A program made the position numbers and the translations under genes. A stretch of 64,000 nt of DNA, taken from positions 128,001 through 192,000 of the forward strand of contig JAVYWL010000003.1 of NCBI GenBank assembly GCA_038727135.1. The letters are read 5' to 3'. Source of the DNA: Candidatus Bathyarchaeia archaeon (GTDB lineage: Archaea; Thermoproteota; Bathyarchaeia; Bathyarchaeales; Bathycorpusculaceae). Below the pieces are notes generated by a model, which saw nothing but the letters and a program-made list of their open reading frames with translations, did no database searches and had not been told where the DNA came from. Shown here in pieces: positions 1-7,367 of this stretch. The first letter of the stretch is position 1. Each line of letters starts with the position of its first letter.

Positions 1-413
1 TCTCCTATAACGTCGTTGATTTCGCTAAGCTCTGAGGAAACCTCTGGTAAAACATCAAAGAGCTGTTTTGAGACGCTTTGGAGAGTTCTCAAGGCGGGTT
101 TTAGGTCTATGACTATGTCGCTTAGCTCTTTCACCGTTTCGAGGCGGAGGATAACCCTTTCAATGGCAAGCTCCACCTGCTGGAGAAAATTAATTAGCTT
201 TCGAACTTCGGCTAGCTCGTTTGCACATATTGCGGCCCTTTCCTTGTTGTTGGCTCTTAGTGCTGTTACGCATGTCTGGAATAGGTTTTTGTCTCTTTCC
301 TTCAGCCTCAGTGATGCTTGAACCACTTTATGTTGTTGGATTCGCAGTTTATGCACAGACTTGATTATAACTTCTCGTAGTGGTGGAGGGGTTTGGGTGA
401 AAGGGTTTTTTAT
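1..413 (-). CDS. ESCRT-III/Snf7 (CdvB-family) protein, partial (3' end outside window)
   Basis: Not in the ORF track. The minus frame reads ...NPFTQTPPPLREVIIKSVHKLRIQQ...AAICANELAEVRKL...LAIERVILRLETVKELSD, paralogous to ANELAEIRK...LEQIVLRLRTVSELGD at 1185-1847. An in-frame TAG lies just upstream, so the start is probably ATA at 413 behind GGAGGG. Confidence 0.85.
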   Translation of the reverse strand, partial: MKNPFTQTPPPLREVIIKSVHKLRIQQHKVVQASLRLKERDKNLFQTCVTALRANNKERAAICANELAEVRKLINFLQQVELAIERVILRLETVKELSDIVIDLKPALRTLQSVSKQLFDVLPEVSSELSEINDVIG

Positions 414-443
414 TTTTGCTCCCTCCGCCCGCTACGCAGAAGC

Positions 444-1169
444 CTATATCCCGGACTCGCCTGCTTCTTTCACGTAAACTATGACTGGGGGTTCTGGGAG
501 ACTTGGAGACGGGGGAGTTGGGGCTTCAACATGCTCTTCTTCGGTAACAGTTTTCGATGGCGCCTCTCCCAATAGAATGTTTGAAAGCTTGTTTTTCATG
601 CTTTCAAGGTCTGCCTTTTCTAAGTTTGCCCGTTTTAGGCATTCCTGAATTGTTGCAAACGCCGCTTGATAAGATTGGTCGTCAACCTCGCCTATCTCGT
701 GCTCCACTTCTAAGTGAACAAGCGCATAATTTAGCTCCCTAATCTCCTGGTTGCATCTTTCAATTTCTTTATCAATCCTTTCAAGCAAGGCTTGAGCTTC
801 GCTTTTAAGCTGGTTTAGGGCGCCTTCAAAACTCTTATGTAGGTCTTCATAAACTTCTTGGGAAATCTTCTTTTTCTCAAGAAGCTCTTTTAGAGCTTGG
901 TCTTTGCGCCATATAAGCGGAATCTGGTCGCAGAAAACCGCAGTATCATATTTAACTTTTGAAAGGAAAATTACTTCTGAACCTTCAACCTTTATTGTCC
1001 CAGCGGGATACTTAACGAAGCGCCCATCACTGTGCCTTATATAAACGGCGTCCACTCCACCGTGAGGCTTTACAGCTAGGGATGCCACCTCGCCTATTGG
1101 GCGTCCATACTCGTCTTTAATGACTTTGCCGAGGGACAAAAAAAGATTGGGATCTTGTGGCATGTACAC
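444..1169 (-). CDS. cdvA: CdvA-like cell division protein
   Basis: N-terminal PRC-barrel-like segment (LGKVIKDEYGRPIGEV), long coiled coil, Pro-rich linker and C-terminal beta-strand motif VIVYV; flanked by two Snf7 genes. Confidence 0.85.
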   Translation of the reverse strand: MYMPQDPNLFLSLGKVIKDEYGRPIGEVASLAVKPHGGVDAVYIRHSDGRFVKYPAGTIKVEGSEVIFLSKVKYDTAVFCDQIPLIWRKDQALKELLEKKKISQEVYEDLHKSFEGALNQLKSEAQALLERIDKEIERCNQEIRELNYALVHLEVEHEIGEVDDQSYQAAFATIQECLKRANLEKADLESMKNKLSNILLGEAPSKTVTEEEHVEAPTPPSPSLPEPPVIVYVKEAGESGI

Positions 1170-1184
1170 TCCTCCATTATGTTA

Positions 1185-1847
1185 TTAAGATGTTTCTGTT
1201 GTGGATTTTTCTGGAAGCGGCACTTGCGGGATCCCTGCCGGAAGCTCTGGGAACTTCTCCTTAATTTTCTGTTCAGCCACAGCTGCAGCCTCAGTAAGTA
1301 TTTTTTGGGCGTCTTCGTTAGCTGTTTCAAAGTTTATGGATAATCCTGTGCTTTGTCCAGCCTCAACTATTATTCCACTTAAAAGGTTGCCTATCTGCCC
1401 CAACTCCCTCTCCGCTTCTGGGAAGATGTTAGCCATTCCAGTTTTTACAGCTCTTAGCACGCTTACTGCAGGTCCAAGAGTTGAAACAACGTCTCCAAGC
1501 TCTGATACTGTGCGTAATCTTAAGACTATTTGTTCAAGGGCAAGCCTAGCCTGCATAATCATCTTTTCCATCTTTCTTATCTCAGCCAACTCGTTGGCAA
1601 AGACATTTGCCCGTGCCATGTCATGCTTTGTGTAAGCATCGACAATTCTTGCAAATATTGACTTGTCTCTCTGGCTGAACCTCTCACTTGCTTGGTCTAA
1701 CTTCTGTATTTGGAGTTCTATGCGGCGGACAGCCATGTCAAGCCTCGGCTTCAACGGACCCGGCGGCCTGACAGCTTCTTTGATGCGCTCTGTTAGTGGT
1801 TGCTCGTCGCGCCTCTCATCCCATCTTCTACTAAACTTTTCGGACAA
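1185..1847 (-). CDS. cdvB: ESCRT-III/Snf7 (CdvB-family) protein
   Basis: Snf7 core (ARANVFANELAEIRK, LEQIVLRLRTV) and a MIM2-like C-terminal FPELP motif. Start refined to TTG 1847 behind GGAGGA; the ORF track extends to 1922. Confidence 0.9.
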   Translation of the reverse strand: MSEKFSRRWDERRDEQPLTERIKEAVRPPGPLKPRLDMAVRRIELQIQKLDQASERFSQRDKSIFARIVDAYTKHDMARANVFANELAEIRKMEKMIMQARLALEQIVLRLRTVSELGDVVSTLGPAVSVLRAVKTGMANIFPEAERELGQIGNLLSGIIVEAGQSTGLSINFETANEDAQKILTEAAAVAEQKIKEKFPELPAGIPQVPLPEKSTTETS

Positions 1848-2067
1848 GCTTGATTCCTCCAAGAAGAGGCTTAAGGGGCTTGGCAAATCTTTATACATTC
1901 TTAATATGCCCGCATTATCCATGTATATATGTAGAGCTATATGTGCCAGCTGAAACCTTTTTGAGCTTTAATTTTCCAGTGAAAAGAACTCCTTGCCGCT
2001 TTCTCTGAAATAGACAAAAAAGTGTAAGTTAGACTAAAAAGAGGCTTATAATTCAATTCTAGGCTAG

Positions 2068-2295
2068 GTGGAAAAGATGGGCGAAAGATTAAAGGTATTC
2101 CTGTTTGTCGCCATACTGGGATTCATCGCCGGAGTCATAGCTGAACTAACAATTGAATACGTAGTCCCAGCGCTTGCAGCTATACTGCCAGCCATCTTCA
2201 GCGCAAAATACATACTATCGGGACTCGCAGGCGCCTTTCTAACACTCATAATCGTTAGCATATGGGCATACATCACAGGACCAAAAGAACCATAA
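2068..2295 (+). CDS. small two-TM membrane protein, unknown function
   Basis: 75-aa ORF with two hydrophobic segments, divergent from cdvB. Confidence 0.7.
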   Translation: MEKMGERLKVFLFVAILGFIAGVIAELTIEYVVPALAAILPAIFSAKYILSGLAGAFLTLIIVSIWAYITGPKEP

Positions 2296-2366
2296 CTTTC
2301 GAGCTTCCGTTCACCTTTTTACCCTTCCTTCAACGAATTGTTAGTTGATTGTATGGCTTTCATTTT

Positions 2367-2426
2367 GGACTCAGGAGCGGAAAAAACAATCATCAGTTCA
2401 GCGTACCTCGATGTCATCATCGTACC
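2367..2426 (-). ncRNA. C/D-box 2'-O-methylation guide sRNA
   Basis: Minus strand reads AUGAUGA (box C, 2420-2414), 12-nt guide CAUCGAGGUACG, CUGA (D'), UGAUGA (C'), 15-nt guide UUGUUUUUUCCGCUC, CUGA (D), with a short imperfect terminal stem. The D' guide is complementary to the conserved 23S sequence UACCUCGAUG. Confidence 0.9.
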
Positions 2427-2535
2427 GTGAAGATATTTCCCACCAAAACCTAAAAACCTATCGCAAACCCAAACAAAACATAACCACAACATCAAAAACA
2501 ACACCAACCTTCACCAAACCAGAAAAATGGGGGTT

Positions 2536-2853
2536 TTAAGCTGTGGGATATGCTGGAGCATAGAGGCTCCTATTGCTGTTTACGCATTTAACCCTCTGGT
2601 CTGCTGGCAAAACGCAACCCTCAAGCCTAACACCGTCAAAGTTTACACATGTAACACAAGCCTTCTCCCTGACAAGCCTAGAAACATGCCTCTTTAAGGC
2701 TTCCAAAAGCTCAAACACCTGCTGAGGCTTCAAAGATACATCAACGCCATGCCAAACATTCTCCTTATCGCTGTACTCAACGGCTAAAAGCTGAAGGTCT
2801 AAGCCGACGCTCTCAATGTAAAGCCTTCCAATACGAACAACCTCTTTAACCAT
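2536..2853 (-). CDS. hypothetical protein with C-terminal Cys cluster
   Basis: 105 aa, CxxC-x10-C-x9-C; GGTGG-like RBS and TATA box upstream. Confidence 0.65.
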   Translation of the reverse strand: MVKEVVRIGRLYIESVGLDLQLLAVEYSDKENVWHGVDVSLKPQQVFELLEALKRHVSRLVREKACVTCVNFDGVRLEGCVLPADQRVKCVNSNRSLYAPAYPTA

Positions 2854-2887
2854 CTTTTTCCACCAAGTAGAATATTCTCCACAGTAG

Positions 2888-2924
2888 TATATAAACTTTT
2901 CTACCTAGTAGAAAAATATAAATA
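2888..2924. promoter_or_regulatory. divergent promoters with central operator-like inverted repeat
   Basis: TTTTCTAC-cta-GTAGAAAA (2897-2915) lies between back-to-back TATA-like boxes serving the genes at 2853(-) and 2959(+). Confidence 0.6.
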
Positions 2925-2958
2925 TTCCAATCCATCTACTTCAAAATAGGAGAAAACC

Positions 2959-3111
2959 ATGAAAAGCATAAAAGTTGAAGATGATATTTACGTAGAACTT
3001 CTAAAACTAAAAGCATCCCTAACAGCCAAAGACGGCAAAACAAGAACCTTCACACAAGCCATAAAAGAACTTATCGAACACTACAAAAAACACCAAAAAG
3101 AGGAAAAATGA
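2959..3111 (+). CDS. ribbon-helix-helix DNA-binding protein (50 aa)
   Basis: Below the ORF-track cutoff: MKSIKVEDDIYVELLKLKASLTAKDGKTRTFTQAIKELIEHYKK, a beta-alpha-alpha RHH pattern; AGGAG RBS. Confidence 0.75.
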   Translation: MKSIKVEDDIYVELLKLKASLTAKDGKTRTFTQAIKELIEHYKKHQKEEK

Positions 3112-3115
3112 AACC

Positions 3116-3298
3116 ATGAGCTTCCCTGAAGGCATACTATGGGGAATAGGCTACAAGGAAGCAACCCAACACCTAAAACGTAAACCCAAAGTCATCTGCC
3201 ACAACTGCGGACACATCTACTATGCAAAGCTTGACAAATGTCCAAAATGCCACCATCCAAATGAAGACAAAAACCAACCCGCCTATTGGATAACCTAA
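3116..3298 (+). CDS. small zinc-ribbon protein
   Basis: CHNCGH-x8-CPKCHH; starts 4 bp after the RHH gene. Confidence 0.7.
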   Translation: MSFPEGILWGIGYKEATQHLKRKPKVICHNCGHIYYAKLDKCPKCHHPNEDKNQPAYWIT

Positions 3299-3299
3299 C

Positions 3300-3705
3300 A
3301 AACCCAACCTAGACCAAACCACAACAAAAACCCACAACCTTTTCCCACATTAAACAAGGAAACAAAAACACCACCAAACCACACACCCAAAAACCAAAAA
3401 CAACCACAAACCAAACAAAAAGAAACCACACCACAACCCAGTGTACTATCTCTACACATATATACTTAAATTTAAGTATATATGTGTAGAGATACTCTAT
3501 TTCGATGTAGTTTTGGTTCATGTTGTTGTGGTTTGGGTTTTGGTTGTGGTTTTGTGGTTTTTTGTTGGTTTGGTGGGGGGTTATGTAGGCTGATTGTTTC
3601 TGTATTGGATATTACGCTTTCATTAACTTTGGTGAAGGTTGGTTGGGTGGGGCTGTTTTGTGTGGGTTGGGTTGCTTGATTTGTTCAAGTAGCTGGAGCT
3701 TGAAA
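3300..3705. repeat. perfect 48-bp palindrome (3447-3494) flanked by an A/C-rich arm (left) and a G/T-rich arm (right)
   Basis: TATCTCTACACATATATACTTAAA|TTTAAGTATATATGTGTAGAGATA. The arms mirror each other in composition but are not exact reverse complements. Confidence 0.95.
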
Positions 3706-3708
3706 TGT

Positions 3709-4179
3709 TCAAGTTGGGGGTTTGGGTTGTTTTAGGGTTTGGTATTCGCTTCTTAGTGTGTCTAGGTTTTGGAAGGTGTTGAGGATGAGTAGTTCGAGTT
3801 TGCTTATGATGTTTGGGTCTAGTTTGCGGGGTTCTGCGTAAACCTTTTCGTAGTAGTCGAGGATGAGGTCTATGCGTTGTTGGATTTGTTCTGGTTTGTC
3901 CCATTTTAGGCGGTTGACACAGTATTCGAATATGTCATGCATGGTTTTGAAGACGAAGCCTACGTATGTGGTTATTAGGTAGCTTCTGCCTTCGAGGCTT
4001 CCTAAGAGGTCTAAAGTGGAATAATGTAGGTAATGTTTAACATATTCTCGAAAACTTCTTGCTTTTTGGATGGCTTCTTGTCTTCTTAGAAGGCTGTATT
4101 GAACATAGTATTCTTTCAGTTTTTGGGCTGTGAGCTCGTTTAGCCTATGCAGGTCTTCAGGTTTAATCTCTCTATACAT
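3709..4179 (-). CDS. hypothetical helical protein
   Basis: 156-aa ORF with protein-like composition; AT-rich promoter-like region at 4180-4260. Confidence 0.65.
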   Translation of the reverse strand: MYREIKPEDLHRLNELTAQKLKEYYVQYSLLRRQEAIQKARSFREYVKHYLHYSTLDLLGSLEGRSYLITTYVGFVFKTMHDIFEYCVNRLKWDKPEQIQQRIDLILDYYEKVYAEPRKLDPNIISKLELLILNTFQNLDTLRSEYQTLKQPKPPT

Positions 4180-4285
4180 ATGCGAAAAAGTTTAAACTCT
4201 GATATTTAAAGTTTATATTTGCCTATATATCTTTAAACATTACTAAAGAGAATATAGGTTTAAGCATGGGGGAACGTCTCAGGGG

Positions 4286-4510
4286 ATGGCTGTAAGCTCG
4301 ACAATTCCAAAACATATGTTGAAAAGGTTGCTCCTCGACAAGCTTAAAAGCCTAGAAAAGAGGGTTTGCTTCATGTGTAGTTTTCAAAACGCCAGAAGCC
4401 CAATAACCAGAAGGCTTGCATGTAGAAAATGCGAGGTTAAAAAGGGCTTCAGAGAAGTTAGAAAACTGATTTACCAAACTTACCATTTAAGGTCTAAACA
4501 AAAACGGTGA
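4286..4510 (+). CDS. small basic CxxC...CxxC protein
   Basis: CFMC-x14-CRKC. Confidence 0.55.
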   Translation: MAVSSTIPKHMLKRLLLDKLKSLEKRVCFMCSFQNARSPITRRLACRKCEVKKGFREVRKLIYQTYHLRSKQKR

Positions 4511-4775
4511 GCCTCTTCTCCCAAATAAAATTTGGACAGTTAATGCATTTAACCTTAAACATGCATGAAGGATTAACCTCACGAACCATTGGAAGATTGA
4601 TATAGCGTCTTTTCAAAGTGCAATATGGCATCGACCTACCCCTCTCAACCATAACAACTAAAGTGTAGCCTCGACGTCTTCCACCACCACCCCTAAACAC
4701 CCTCCTAGAAGCTCGATAAACATCACCCACAAGCTCCTCCAAAACCCTAACCTCAGGCAAACCAACAACCCCCAA
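4494..4775 (-). CDS. small basic Cys-rich protein
   Basis: C-terminal C...C...CINC; follows 4786-5388 on the same strand. Confidence 0.55.
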   Translation of the reverse strand: MGVVGLPEVRVLEELVGDVYRASRRVFRGGGGRRRGYTLVVMVERGRSMPYCTLKRRYINLPMVREVNPSCMFKVKCINCPNFIWEKRLTVFV

Positions 4776-4785
4776 AAGTTATTTT

Positions 4786-5388
4786 TTAACGGTCACCCTC
4801 CTCAGACAACTTCAAAGTAAACTCACGGCATTTCAAATTCGGGCACCCAAAACAATCGTTCAGGGGTAACCTCTCCAAAGCGACATGCTCATTTCTCAGA
4901 CCACAATACCAGCTCCCCCCACCCAATACAACAACATTCTTACTATAACGCCTAGGCCGACTCTGAACGTATTGCTCAAATCTCACTTCATCAACCTTAA
5001 TAGGCGACTCAATTAACCGCCTCAAAGTATTGCCGTAAGCATGCTTTTCTAATGTTGTTTTTAGCACGTGTAATGCCATGTATTTTTGGAGGATTTTGCA
5101 AGCAGACTCTTTTTTTTCCTTAACAACCAAATTGAAGGCTTTTCTAAGGTTTTCTGGACAATCAAAGCTTACATGAACGATTTTTCCGCCAAACAAGTCT
5201 TTAAAATGCTCCTCGAAAAGTCCATCAAAAAGCATGCTAAAAGCACTACTTTGATCCGTTTGTTTGTTACGTTTTCTGGTTTTGGCTTTGGCGTGATTGA
5301 TTACTCTTATCGTCTCATGTATTGCGATAATGTATTTAGCTCGATTGTTACAAAAAGATTTATAAGGGTTTAATAGGTTCTTGTACAT
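4786..5388 (-). CDS. hypothetical protein with RHH-like segment and C-terminal Zn-binding motif
   Basis: VHVSFDCPENLRKAFNLVVK...ACKILQKYM (RHH-like) and C-terminal C...CFGC...C; start uncertain. Confidence 0.55.
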   Translation of the reverse strand: MYKNLLNPYKSFCNNRAKYIIAIHETIRVINHAKAKTRKRNKQTDQSSAFSMLFDGLFEEHFKDLFGGKIVHVSFDCPENLRKAFNLVVKEKKESACKILQKYMALHVLKTTLEKHAYGNTLRRLIESPIKVDEVRFEQYVQSRPRRYSKNVVVLGGGSWYCGLRNEHVALERLPLNDCFGCPNLKCREFTLKLSEEGDR

Positions 5389-5569
5389 GTGGGGACGCCA
5401 CCCCTTTTTTCAGAGTTTTTATTATGTATTTGAATTTTTAAAGTTTTTGGGTTTTTTGGGTTTCTTTTGTGGTTTTGGGTTTTTAATGGGTTTATAGTTG
5501 CATAATAGGATAGTAATATGGTAGTTTTTTGAAAATAACCGCTTTTCTGGCTTATTACATGTGTAAGTT

Positions 5570-6793
5570 TTAGGCTGTGCCTTTCAGTAGTTCTGGATGC
5601 TTCTTATAGAACTCTATTAGGAATTGCATCATGTCTGTTTTCTTTAAGGTCTCGATTATTGTTAGGGCTTCTTCATATCTTTTCTGCATTTGGTTGAGTT
5701 GGTTTCTTAGTTTCTCGATTTCGGCTCTCTGTTCTTCTATTAGCCTTTCAACGTGTGTGGGTTGGTATAGCCTTAGGCTTTCATATCCTTTCTTGTATAG
5801 TTGCCTATGATATTCTGGGTCTGTGCTTAGGTAGTGGGTTGCTGTGCTTGTGTGTCCCATCCAAAACTCAACGTAGGCTGAGTCTATTGCTGAAGCCATA
5901 AACTTGCGGAAAGCCTTTCTTAGGCAGTAGAGCCTTAAAGGTTTAGGCTTTTTGCCTTGAGCCTCGACAAGCTTGAGCTTCTTGACGTAAACGTTGAACC
6001 TTTGGCTCATGGCTTGAGCCGTGAGCTTCTGGTTTGCAGGCTTCTCAGTTACAAAAACATAATCATCATCCTTTAAAGGCAACCTATGAGCCAGATAGGT
6101 CTTTAAAGCCTTAACTCCATCCTCGCCTATAAAAGTCCACCTTTGGCTAACCCTACACTTCAAAATGTCTGGAGTCAAGTCTATACGCATGGGAACGTTG
6201 CCAAAATCGTTTTTGATATGCTTCCACTTCAAATTAGCCAAGGTTTCAGGTCTCATTCCACTTTCATAAAGGATAAGCCAAATCGCCCTATCCCTAACAT
6301 CTGAGTTATCCAGAATAAGCCTAAGCTCATCCTTAGTTATGTCCCTGTTATGATAAACAATATACGGATACCTAATCCTTAAAGGCTTAGCTGGAATGTC
6401 AAAGGCATGGAGAAAACTCATTATGGTGCTCATTCTCCGCTTAACACTTAAAGGTGTAAGCCTACCCTTCAACAAGGCAAAATAATCCCTAAGAACATCG
6501 TTAAGCTCATCCAAAAACCTCTCCCTAGAGGCTTCACCATTATATTTGGCTTCCCTCCATTTCTGAGGCAAAACCTTAACATCTAAACCATAATTCTCAA
6601 AAACCCACCTCTCAAACTCCAAAATGTCTTGACGATAACGCCTCTTAGTGTTCTCGCTCTCCGTAACTTGGCTAAGCCAAACCTCATAAACGTCCCGCAT
6701 AAGGCTTAACCCCTCCGAAAATAGCTTAAGAAGGCTCCCCCTATATAAATCTTCACTATATTGTGAAAATTCCTCGATCTCTTCATCGTCCAA
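5570..6793 (-). CDS. tyrosine recombinase/integrase
   Basis: ESGMRPE (catalytic R), YCLRK in the HxxR position, FWMGH and catalytic Y in ATHYL; N-terminal SAM-like domain and C-terminal coiled coil. Confidence 0.93.
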   Translation of the reverse strand: MDDEEIEEFSQYSEDLYRGSLLKLFSEGLSLMRDVYEVWLSQVTESENTKRRYRQDILEFERWVFENYGLDVKVLPQKWREAKYNGEASRERFLDELNDVLRDYFALLKGRLTPLSVKRRMSTIMSFLHAFDIPAKPLRIRYPYIVYHNRDITKDELRLILDNSDVRDRAIWLILYESGMRPETLANLKWKHIKNDFGNVPMRIDLTPDILKCRVSQRWTFIGEDGVKALKTYLAHRLPLKDDDYVFVTEKPANQKLTAQAMSQRFNVYVKKLKLVEAQGKKPKPLRLYCLRKAFRKFMASAIDSAYVEFWMGHTSTATHYLSTDPEYHRQLYKKGYESLRLYQPTHVERLIEEQRAEIEKLRNQLNQMQKRYEEALTIIETLKKTDMMQFLIEFYKKHPELLKGTA

Positions 6794-6839
6794 AATAACA
6801 AAGTGTTAACGAAATTATTTATGTTTTTCAAAACGTTTT

Positions 6840-7367
6840 ATGTGTGGAAGGTGCGGAAAATCTTTGGAAGGAAGCCATATTAAAAATTATCGTTTAAGGC
6901 TTGAGAACGCCTCGAGTTATAGTGACATATGGGAGGTTGTTAAGGACACTGTTGCCTTTTCCTTAAACCAGCGGAGGGCTGGAATAATGCTTTTCCTTGA
7001 CGACTTGCCCATACAGTTGGGAGCTTACCACCCCATTGGAACAAACAACATTGTTTTGAACAGCATCCTTGTTAGGGCTGTTGAAGCCTCTACAAATTCG
7101 AAGCGTGTTGTAAACGCCTTAATCTATAATCTGCTTCTCCACGAATATCTCCATGCCTTAGGGCATGTCTCGGAATTGAAGGTTAGGCAGCTGGTATATT
7201 ATATTGCAAGAGAGTGCTTTGGCGAGGAACACATAGCCACAGCCATAGCCAAAAGCAGCCCGTGGGCTTTGCTGAAGAGCATACCCCTGGACAAGGCATT
7301 TCACGCCAGACGAGTCATGGAAATTGTTAAGGACTTTGAGAAGACGGACCAAAAATACATAGTTTAG
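6840..7367 (+). CDS. HEXXH zincin-like metalloprotein
   Basis: LLHEYLHALGH motif; N-terminal CxxC. Confidence 0.75.
   Translation: MCGRCGKSLEGSHIKNYRLRLENASSYSDIWEVVKDTVAFSLNQRRAGIMLFLDDLPIQLGAYHPIGTNNIVLNSILVRAVEASTNSKRVVNALIYNLLLHEYLHALGHVSELKVRQLVYYIARECFGEEHIATAIAKSSPWALLKSIPLDKAFHARRVMEIVKDFEKTDQKYIV

Follow-up and report, generated by a model that had tools for sequence, protein, structure and literature searches.

An integrative element in a C/D-box-like small RNA gene

The window, i.e., the whole stretch of 64,000 nucleotides analyzed here, belongs to a Candidatus Bathyarchaeia archaeon and carries a 4.4-kb element in the archaeal chromosome. An 18-mer occurs at both ends of the element (16 of 18 positions identical), and a comparison of positions 2000 to 6900 with 151 genomes of the same family revealed four same-genus genomes, all of which join 2423 straight to 6772 with an 18-bp overlap. 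As the 18-mer is found at both ends and relatives have an empty site, 2406-6789 represents an insertion. With its tyrosine integrase, direct att repeat and a site that is empty in relatives, it is a site-specific integrative element, whose excised circle would measure 4,366 bp. Its features are given below, together with their counterparts in three related elements (L063, G437 and G152).

2369-2424, minus strand: host target, a conserved C/D-box-like small RNA gene; attL restores its 5′ end
2406-2423: attL, 18 bp
2536-2853, minus strand: 105-aa protein, found in L063 (93%) and G437 (51%) but not in the G152 element
2959-3111, plus strand: 50-aa small DNA-binding (antitoxin/RHH-like) protein, with a homologue in all four elements
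3116-3298, plus strand: 60-aa zinc-ribbon protein, with a homologue in G437 (40%)
3299-3446: left non-coding arm, A/C-rich on the plus strand; G/T fraction 0.88-0.92 on the strand leaving the axis
3447-3494: palindrome with 24-bp arms; its central 20 bp are identical in G437 and G152
3495-3708: right non-coding arm; G/T fraction 0.72-0.92 on the plus strand
3675-3689 and 3699-3713: 15-bp inverted repeat CTTGAA-N3-TTCAAG, two copies (a single mismatch in one of them), at the 3′ end of the capsid-like gene
3709-4179, minus strand: 156-aa protein with a predicted Adnaviria (SIRV2/AFV1-type) major capsid fold, predicted homodimer
4286-4510, plus strand: 74-aa four-cysteine protein, also in L063 (84%)
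4494-4775, minus strand: 93-aa ORF, also in L063 (66%), no family
4786-5388, minus strand: 200-aa protein, no family, RHH-like by eye, with distant homologues in L063, L065 and L062
5570-6793, minus strand: tyrosine integrase, 407 aa (PF00589, E 3e-15)
6772-6789: attR, 18 bp, 16/18 as attL, overlapping the first codons of the integrase ORF

The interior of the element was absent from the 13 other genomes of the genus (0/13), and its own genome contained no spacer-like match to it. The host neighborhood at 1-1922 comprises two Snf7/ESCRT-III-like genes and cdvA, followed at 2068-2295 by the gene of a conserved 75-aa membrane protein that has a paralogue on contig C6.

The target RNA gene is a conserved 56-nt stretch in which C, D′, C′ and D boxes are visible and conserved across 11 loci. 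Its match to Rfam sR20 (18.7 bits, E 2) lies far below the gathering score of 44. One of its guides can pair over 13 nt with an rRNA-like stretch located at the end of contig C3; no other match in the genome is as long. We take this stretch to be the peptidyl-transferase loop of 23S rRNA, in which the guide would be directed to the equivalent of Escherichia coli C2498; judging from this complementarity, the RNA apparently guides methylation in that loop. Such a conserved C/D-box-like RNA gene, rather than a tRNA gene, is the attachment site of the integrase family, and the elements at these sites vary widely in cargo (loci: window 2369-2424 on the minus strand, L043-L049, L061, L063, L069, L071-L073 and L079). 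In L048, L063, L069, L072 and L073, integrase relatives lie next to the att core found in the window element, and our literature search found no paper on integrases that target box sRNA genes. Four of the loci (L043, 3000-3914; L044, 2305; L045, 11779; L046, 3358) show an attL-type junction at the same site followed by few or no genes, which suggests that they are remnants of related elements and that insertion and decay have been repeated. L073 contains a complete 5.5-kb element (96-5576) with an att core of this RNA gene on either side; it has a rolling-circle Rep-like gene (phrog_3419, E 1e-8), no capsid gene and no long palindrome.

The att core lies within the first codons of the integrase gene (6772-6793; 2406-2470), and reading can continue through the excision junction for about 20 codons without a stop. 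With this arrangement, excision would change the start and the promoter of the integrase. In SSV-type integrases, the att site lies within the integrase gene. The overlap of att with the 5′ end of the gene and the open frame across the junction resemble that type, but the target is a C/D-box-like RNA gene instead of a tRNA gene and only a few N-terminal codons change.

The model of the 105-aa protein is of low confidence (pLDDT 55), and matches to COMMD, Pur-alpha and PC4 reach Z scores of 5 or less, so that a possible PC4/PUR-like single-strand-binding fold is a lead only. Inside the 200-aa ORF, a 39-nt inverted repeat (5010-5048 and 5228-5266) is 77% complementary, and a second local A/C-to-G/T switch lies nearby; the homologous gene is inverted in L065. 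The ESM Atlas gave no usable match for the two proteins queried. The window element has no recognizable replication-type gene, and no gene for a Rep, a terminal protein, a resolvase or a fiber was recognized in any of the four elements. G152 carries a 524-aa gene without a Pfam family. The only structural family that emerged from Pfam and PHROGs scans is that of the capsid-like gene, which makes this a small element with an incomplete virion module.

A palindrome shared by elements with a capsid-like gene

Both the palindrome and the mirror arms beside it are genuine and exceed chance expectation by far. As the initial annotation had described, positions 3447-3494 form a perfect, loopless palindrome of 48 bp (24-bp arms, 79% A+T) with its axis at 3470/3471. 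The runner-up among perfect loopless palindromes in the genome (1.55 Mb, all seven contigs scanned) has 11-bp arms, and imperfect hairpins elsewhere in the genome score at most 15, against 24 for this palindrome. Arms of 24 bp are expected by chance about 7e-9 times per genome, or 9e-6 times at 80% A+T throughout. The fraction of G+T is 0.10 in the 150 nt to the left and 0.83 in the 150 nt to the right, the strongest A/C-to-G/T switch genome-wide (difference 0.73; second 0.39; genome standard deviation 0.07). The arms, put at about 145 and 200 bp in the initial annotation, do exist, but the skew extends further, to about 1 kb on the left and 0.7 kb on the right of the axis, coding genes included. 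They are indeed not exact reverse complements: outside the 24 bp they are about 72% complementary over 76 nt and alike in composition only. ORFs of 54 to 70 aa across the palindrome were judged spurious, and Rfam miRNA matches on it were generic hairpin matches far under the gathering score.

Related structures were reached by three routes. L063 was found through its integrase in a metagenome scan (38 loci); its integrase is 98% and its 156-aa protein 75% identical to those of the window. G437 was retrieved with a degenerate DNA pattern derived from the window and L063, which hit two of 401 genomes of the class (the window's own and G437), compared with none for the reversed control. G152 came from a protein profile, without any DNA reference; its palindrome lies about 750 bp before the capsid-like gene. 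The palindrome is perfect and loopless in all four capsid-gene loci, the full sample, with arms of 24 bp (window), 24 bp (L063), 22 bp (G152) and 21 bp (G437) and with the same G/T arms. A comparable structure, which the initial annotation had set beforehand as something to be seen in homologous elements, is thus present in three out of three. Arm contrasts are 0.73, 0.62, 0.53 and 0.33 (0.73 in the window; 0.33 in G152, where the arms are weaker), the 99.9th percentile of the genome being 0.27. The left arm of the window is 82% identical to that of L063 over 136 nt, despite a different upstream gene. In L063, a 211-aa ORF crosses the palindrome, apparently incidentally.

The ten bases on each side of the axis (TATACTTAAA on the left and TTTAAGTATA on the right) are exactly the same in the window, G437 and G152, and L063 shares seven of them. 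Half-sites are identical at 10 to 15 of 21 to 24 positions between elements, and each palindrome is still perfect; in L063 the half-site agrees with that of the window at 12 of 24 positions, and every difference is mirrored. By contrast, none of 39 integrase loci without a capsid-like gene exceeds 12-bp perfect arms (437 kb; three duplicates left out, many of the contigs short). With up to two mismatches, the 20-bp core occurred in nine of 301 genomes, compared with 10 for the reversed control; exact copies were confined to the window's own genome (G000) and G152, and the other seven lack arms and a capsid gene.

In four genomes, a near-palindromic core-like 20-mer (L127, L128, L129 and L132) lies between genes in apparently mobile regions with neither arms nor a capsid gene and may be a separate operator. 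Two IMG/VR pattern matches (L117 and L136) proved to be A+T-rich chance matches in unrelated contigs. An element of the same genus (L050, 14007-14056) has a 50-bp palindrome that is imperfect outside an 11-bp core. It lies next to a primase-helicase gene, with divergent genes on its two sides, no skew and no capsid gene, and may be a two-way promoter or an origin.

We also considered an assembly or amplification artifact, i.e., a fold-back chimera. Support for the junction comes from independently assembled relatives of the element, rather than from spanning reads: four separate assemblies hold different perfect palindromes at an equivalent place, mid-contig and with non-complementary flanks. 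An artifact is thus extremely improbable, in keeping with the initial annotation, which had already argued against one.

We then considered whether the integrase resolves the palindrome. Protelomerase and telomere-resolvase systems include telRL-TelN of N15, ResT of Borrelia and TelA of Agrobacterium. Here too a tyrosine recombinase is encoded nearby, with invariant catalytic residues R181, K212, Y289-x-x-R292, H314 and Y321, the Tyr of that motif presumably resembling ResT/TelA, and the initial annotation had suggested that this enzyme might turn the palindrome into hairpins. Its best solved-structure matches are XerA/XerC-like, however, with no telomere resolvase among the matches in PDB (E≤1) or Pfam (E≤0.1), and it has a normal att repeat of its own. 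Members that are 50 to 57% identical serve complete elements devoid of a palindrome (L048 and L073). Enzyme and palindrome do not covary either: integrases that are 98% identical go with half-sites that agree at 12 of 24 positions, and unrelated integrases go with an identical 20-bp core. G152 and G437 encode an integrase of another type, marked by a zinc ribbon at the N terminus (for G152, identity is 24% over 177 aa; the G437 copy is cut by the contig end). A genome-wide integrase scan yielded 13 loci, all at 50% identity or less. Since the integrase differs between elements that share the core, it is, on these comparisons, likely not the resolvase, and a protelomerase role is most improbable. 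The order of genes differs as well; with both integrase type and gene order differing, the palindrome travels with the genes for the 156-aa and small DNA-binding proteins and not with the integrase. The G437 contig and L063 are truncated, so that both att sites are shown in the window element only.

The skew follows direction from the axis. Third-codon G+T on the sense strand is 0.15 to 0.37 in nine nearby genes that face the axis and 0.50 to 0.71 in seven of eight that point away from it (0.43 in the eighth); host genes have 0.46 to 0.49. The capsid gene itself has 0.18 and 0.34 where it runs toward the palindrome and 0.71 and 0.60 where it runs away. As the skew follows direction from the axis and flips with the orientation of the capsid gene, it depends on the palindrome rather than on transcription. 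The effect is local, since three window genes that face the axis from more than 1 kb away do not follow it (93-aa ORF, 0.77; 200-aa ORF, 0.58; integrase, 0.57).

These data bear on a bidirectional terminator, or a promoter/operator between gene units, with the arms as a by-product of transcription. In its favor, the flanking genes of the window and L063 elements converge, both strands have T-runs past the axis, and the core is TATA-like. In two elements, however, flanking genes point away from the palindrome (the capsid gene in G437, both flanking genes in G152), and palindrome and arms are kept; moreover, the skew flips with orientation, and neither function requires perfect symmetry of the variable outer 11 to 14 bp. 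We therefore regard this explanation as very improbable. The initial annotation had proposed a cis-acting site of the element, either an origin, a telomere-resolution site or a terminator; the cis-acting site within an integrated element is supported, and of the three functions the telomere-type site and the bidirectional origin still lead, while the terminator is unsupported.

A bidirectional origin fits the skew equally well; in this view, the element is always circular, the palindrome acts as a cruciform or as an initiator site, and the capsid-like gene belongs to one module with it, serving, e.g., packaging or helper interference. As the initial annotation had seen, the G/T-rich strand leaves the axis on both sides, whatever the direction of the genes, and such polarity is the usual leading-strand signature. 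The 20-bp core conserved in three elements suggests a bound protein, and the palindromes have hairpin energies of -16 to -20 kcal/mol with 68 to 79% A+T. An origin would leave unexplained, however, why the palindrome is confined to capsid-gene elements (4/4 versus 0/39); the replication-type genes differ among the four elements, and Adnaviria package linear DNA (PMC12282232), so that packaging of a circle by such a coat would also lack an explanation. On balance, an unopened origin appears rather unlikely.

The 156-aa protein and its relationship to Adnaviria coat proteins

The initial annotation had named the 156-aa protein only as a candidate for binding tests and had missed its capsid homology, which is key to the site. 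The five best matches of its predicted structure (pLDDT 90) among 48,161 PDB chains were coat proteins of AFV1, SSRV1 and SIRV, with Z scores of 9.2 to 11.3, below the value of about 13 under which the tool advises caution with helical proteins, and root mean square deviations (rmsd) of 2.0 to 2.2 Å over 77 to 93 residues. AFV1 ORF140 came first (Z 11.3, rmsd 2.2 Å, 93 residues), followed by SSRV1 (Z 10.4), AFV1 ORF132 (10.3 and 10.0) and SIRV (9.2); SFV1 and SIFV scored lower (7.9 and 7.0), and the best unrelated chain had a Z score of 8.2 (rmsd 3.8). Foldseek returned no match at E≤0.001 for this model; its top probabilities in PDB were AFV1 chains, and its first viral model was a protein of the rudivirus ARV1. 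Searching PDB with a sequence profile (A3, E≤10) gave five matches, all AFV1 or rudivirus coat proteins and individually weak (E 0.06-0.9), and the same five were among the seven matches of a wider profile (A4). The sole Pfam match of the G152 homologue is Sulf_coat_C (E 1.3e-4), under the curated cutoff. These lines of evidence, each moderate, lead us to predict that the 156-aa protein is homologous to the alpha-helical major capsid protein of Adnaviria.

A homodimer was modeled with a score of 0.46, compared with 0.01 for the best control, a mark that 20 of 30 solved homodimers and one of 23 monomers also reached; the protein may pass by likeness. The homodimer runs share 100% of contacts (pLDDT≥81). 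The structural match spans residues 40-138, leaving unmatched a long N-terminal helix with 11 basic residues in 50. D and E add up to 21 in the protein, versus 2 in the SIRV2 coat protein and 20 in AFV1 ORF140.

A search of 1.84 billion representatives gave eleven relatives, with six more around the G437 copy, and homologues P0001, P0003 and P0014-P0051 form a wider family. The capsid profile detected three of 401 genomes of the class (the window's own, G437 and G152) and two of 161 genomes of the phylum, both already known; two further sets of 80 genomes gave none, in runs without a positive control. A weak second match to the profile (E 0.008) lies in the window's own genome on contig C1 (six-frame position 698982, minus strand). 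Two capsid proteins compared with annotated phages by tblastn gave nothing meaningful, and IMG/VR scans with the capsid protein, two other capsid relatives, the integrase profile and the left-arm motif yielded no relative and identified no helper.

Each of the four elements has two copies of the 15-bp inverted repeat after the stop codon of the capsid-like gene (in the relatives, L063 3086-3124, L120 1850-1924, and L124 5279-5293 and 5567-5581), at spacings of 24, 24, 60 and 288 bp; in G152 they flank an 84-aa gene. The whole genome contains 22 looser copies. An assembly signal, an operator and an RNA hairpin are candidate functions.

The element could also be a defense or interference island that is not packaged, in which the coat homologue poisons helper assembly, the palindrome serving as a decoy or being a captured terminal junction of the helper. 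The presence of one capsid gene with no fiber or replication genes is in line with this idea, as is the swap of core sequence between elements with 98% identical integrases (half-sites 12/24), expected if the elements track different helpers. A decoy need not, however, leave a symmetrical third-codon skew in flanking genes, and the IMG/VR pattern scans brought up no helper end that matches the half-sites, only two A+T-rich chance matches. An island of this type is improbable.

Joined ends of a linear genome as an explanation

We favor the view, to which we assign a probability of roughly 0.55, that the palindrome represents the terminal repeats, joined together, of a small linear genome, that of a virus or a satellite; this genome would be opened after excision and start its replication there. 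The two halves of 3447-3494 are likely terminal inverted repeats that meet head to head. This reading is preferred to an unopened origin because the latter leaves the exclusive link with the capsid gene unexplained. Adnaviria have linear genomes with terminal inverted repeats that are hairpin-closed or protein-capped (PMC12282232), and passages of PMC5062984 describe strand displacement from both termini of SIRV2 by way of palindromic junctions that are thought to be resolved by a Holliday-junction resolvase.

The element itself was observed in its integrated form only, and the course of events might be as follows. The integrase would excise the 4,366-bp circle, and cleavage of the palindrome at the axis would follow. 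The simplest route would be extrusion of a cruciform and the action of a Holliday-junction resolvase of the host or of a helper virus, yielding hairpin ends; a nicking or terminal-protein route would be an alternative. No opening enzyme was identified among the genes of the element, the integrase matching XerA-type structures only. Opening at 3470/3471 would create a linear molecule with terminal inverted repeats of 21 to 24 bp (24 bp here) and AFV1-like subterminal tracts. Strand-displacement synthesis from each end would expose the strand with its 5′ end at the terminus, deamination of which over time could have generated the G/T arms, and the need for the two repeats to pair could maintain their perfect symmetry. 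Dimers of the capsid protein would coat the linear DNA, with a helper adnavirus supplying the terminal fibers, the replication initiator and the exit route; in a new cell, the ends would be rejoined and the circle integrated.

As in strand-displacement replicons, deamination of the exposed strand would leave such a skew if synthesis started at the axis in both directions. In the genome record of AFV1, both ends bear G/T tracts that differ from each other (0.80-0.87 over 200 nt) and run inward from the two 5′ ends with the same polarity. Such G/T-rich ends are found in one of four reference genomes (AFV1) and are absent from SIRV2, SFV1 and AFV3. The exact terminal repeat of AFV1 is 9 bp and unlike the half-sites described here. 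Shared 6-mers with the AFV1 ends are slightly more frequent than composition predicts (184 versus 161 ± 11; 6 of 500 shuffles).

Compared with Adnaviria (AFV1 of the Ungulaviridae, the rudiviruses SIRV2 and SSRV1, and the Chiyouviridae), the element shares the predicted coat fold, and its capsid-like protein may form a homodimer, as in rudivirids; if opened at the axis, it would also share linear DNA with terminal inverted repeats and G/T-rich ends of AFV1 polarity. Bathyarchaeia are also the host of the known adnavirus Chiyouvirus, for which the available text mentions no integrase, referring to such enzymes for other families only (PMC10541130). The element differs by its size, 4.4 kb versus 17.6 to 41.5 kb, and by its integration through a tyrosine integrase, the ICTV profile describing characterized adnavirians as all lytic with genomes of at least 17.6 kb (PMC12282232). 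It has one capsid gene, no recognizable fiber, glycosyltransferase, Rep or resolvase gene, and a terminal repeat of 21 to 24 bp. It would act as an integrated adnavirus genome with joined ends and as a capsid-encoding satellite, but because of its size and its integrated, att-bounded state we filed it in no recognized Adnaviria family.

The element resembles pSSVx, pSSVi and the haloarchaeal SRCEs (2.7-9 kb), as presented in the accessible sections of bioRxiv 10.1101/2025.02.15.638363, which are small, have a partial virion module, in some cases a capsid gene only, and presumably depend on a helper. Those, however, are partners of spindle-shaped viruses and circular rolling-circle replicons, unlike the filamentous-type capsid and palindromic end-junction found here. 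The same sections name pSSVi and pSSVx as the only earlier archaeal satellites and do not mention Adnaviria.

The systems of N15, Borrelia and Agrobacterium, which are listed in passages of PMC5062984, have a palindrome of similar size with a conserved center that could yield hairpin ends. The present site differs in that no protelomerase was found, the element is bounded by att sites in the chromosome, and the palindrome is perfect to its outer edge. Concatemer junctions of poxviruses and rudiviruses are, like this site, perfect A+T-rich palindromes centered on the future hairpin end, but they measure kilobases and are transient, as opposed to 42 to 48 bp in a stably integrated element with no resolvase gene (PMC5062984, same passages).

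No description of such elements was found in the literature covered, i.e., outside subscription papers and bioRxiv supplements; the supplements of PMC10541130 (56 viral contigs) may list some. A 2026 survey of archaeal proviruses itself notes that Adnaviria may have been overlooked (PMC13573593). There is a fair chance that the element represents a new class. Whether Bathyarchaeia harbor a family of temperate filamentous mini-viruses of 4 to 6 kb, or of capsid-forming satellites, that belongs to Adnaviria, whose linear genomes sit in the chromosome with their telomeres fused as a perfect palindrome and whose ends are regenerated after excision with no protelomerase, seems to us evenly balanced. 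The capsid profile and the palindrome together provide a search handle for elements that virus finders overlook. How the ends of lipothrixvirus- and rudivirus-type genomes are formed and copied is only partly known, and the 48-bp site with its 20-bp core offers a direct biochemical substrate; if our reading is true, it would be a minimal defined substrate for the making of adnaviral ends. The element would then be the first of the adnavirus type to integrate, and filamentous archaeal viruses would have their first satellite; an integrated element of 4.4 kb with a hallmark capsid gene and fused ends would add a temperate or satellite lifestyle to Adnaviria.
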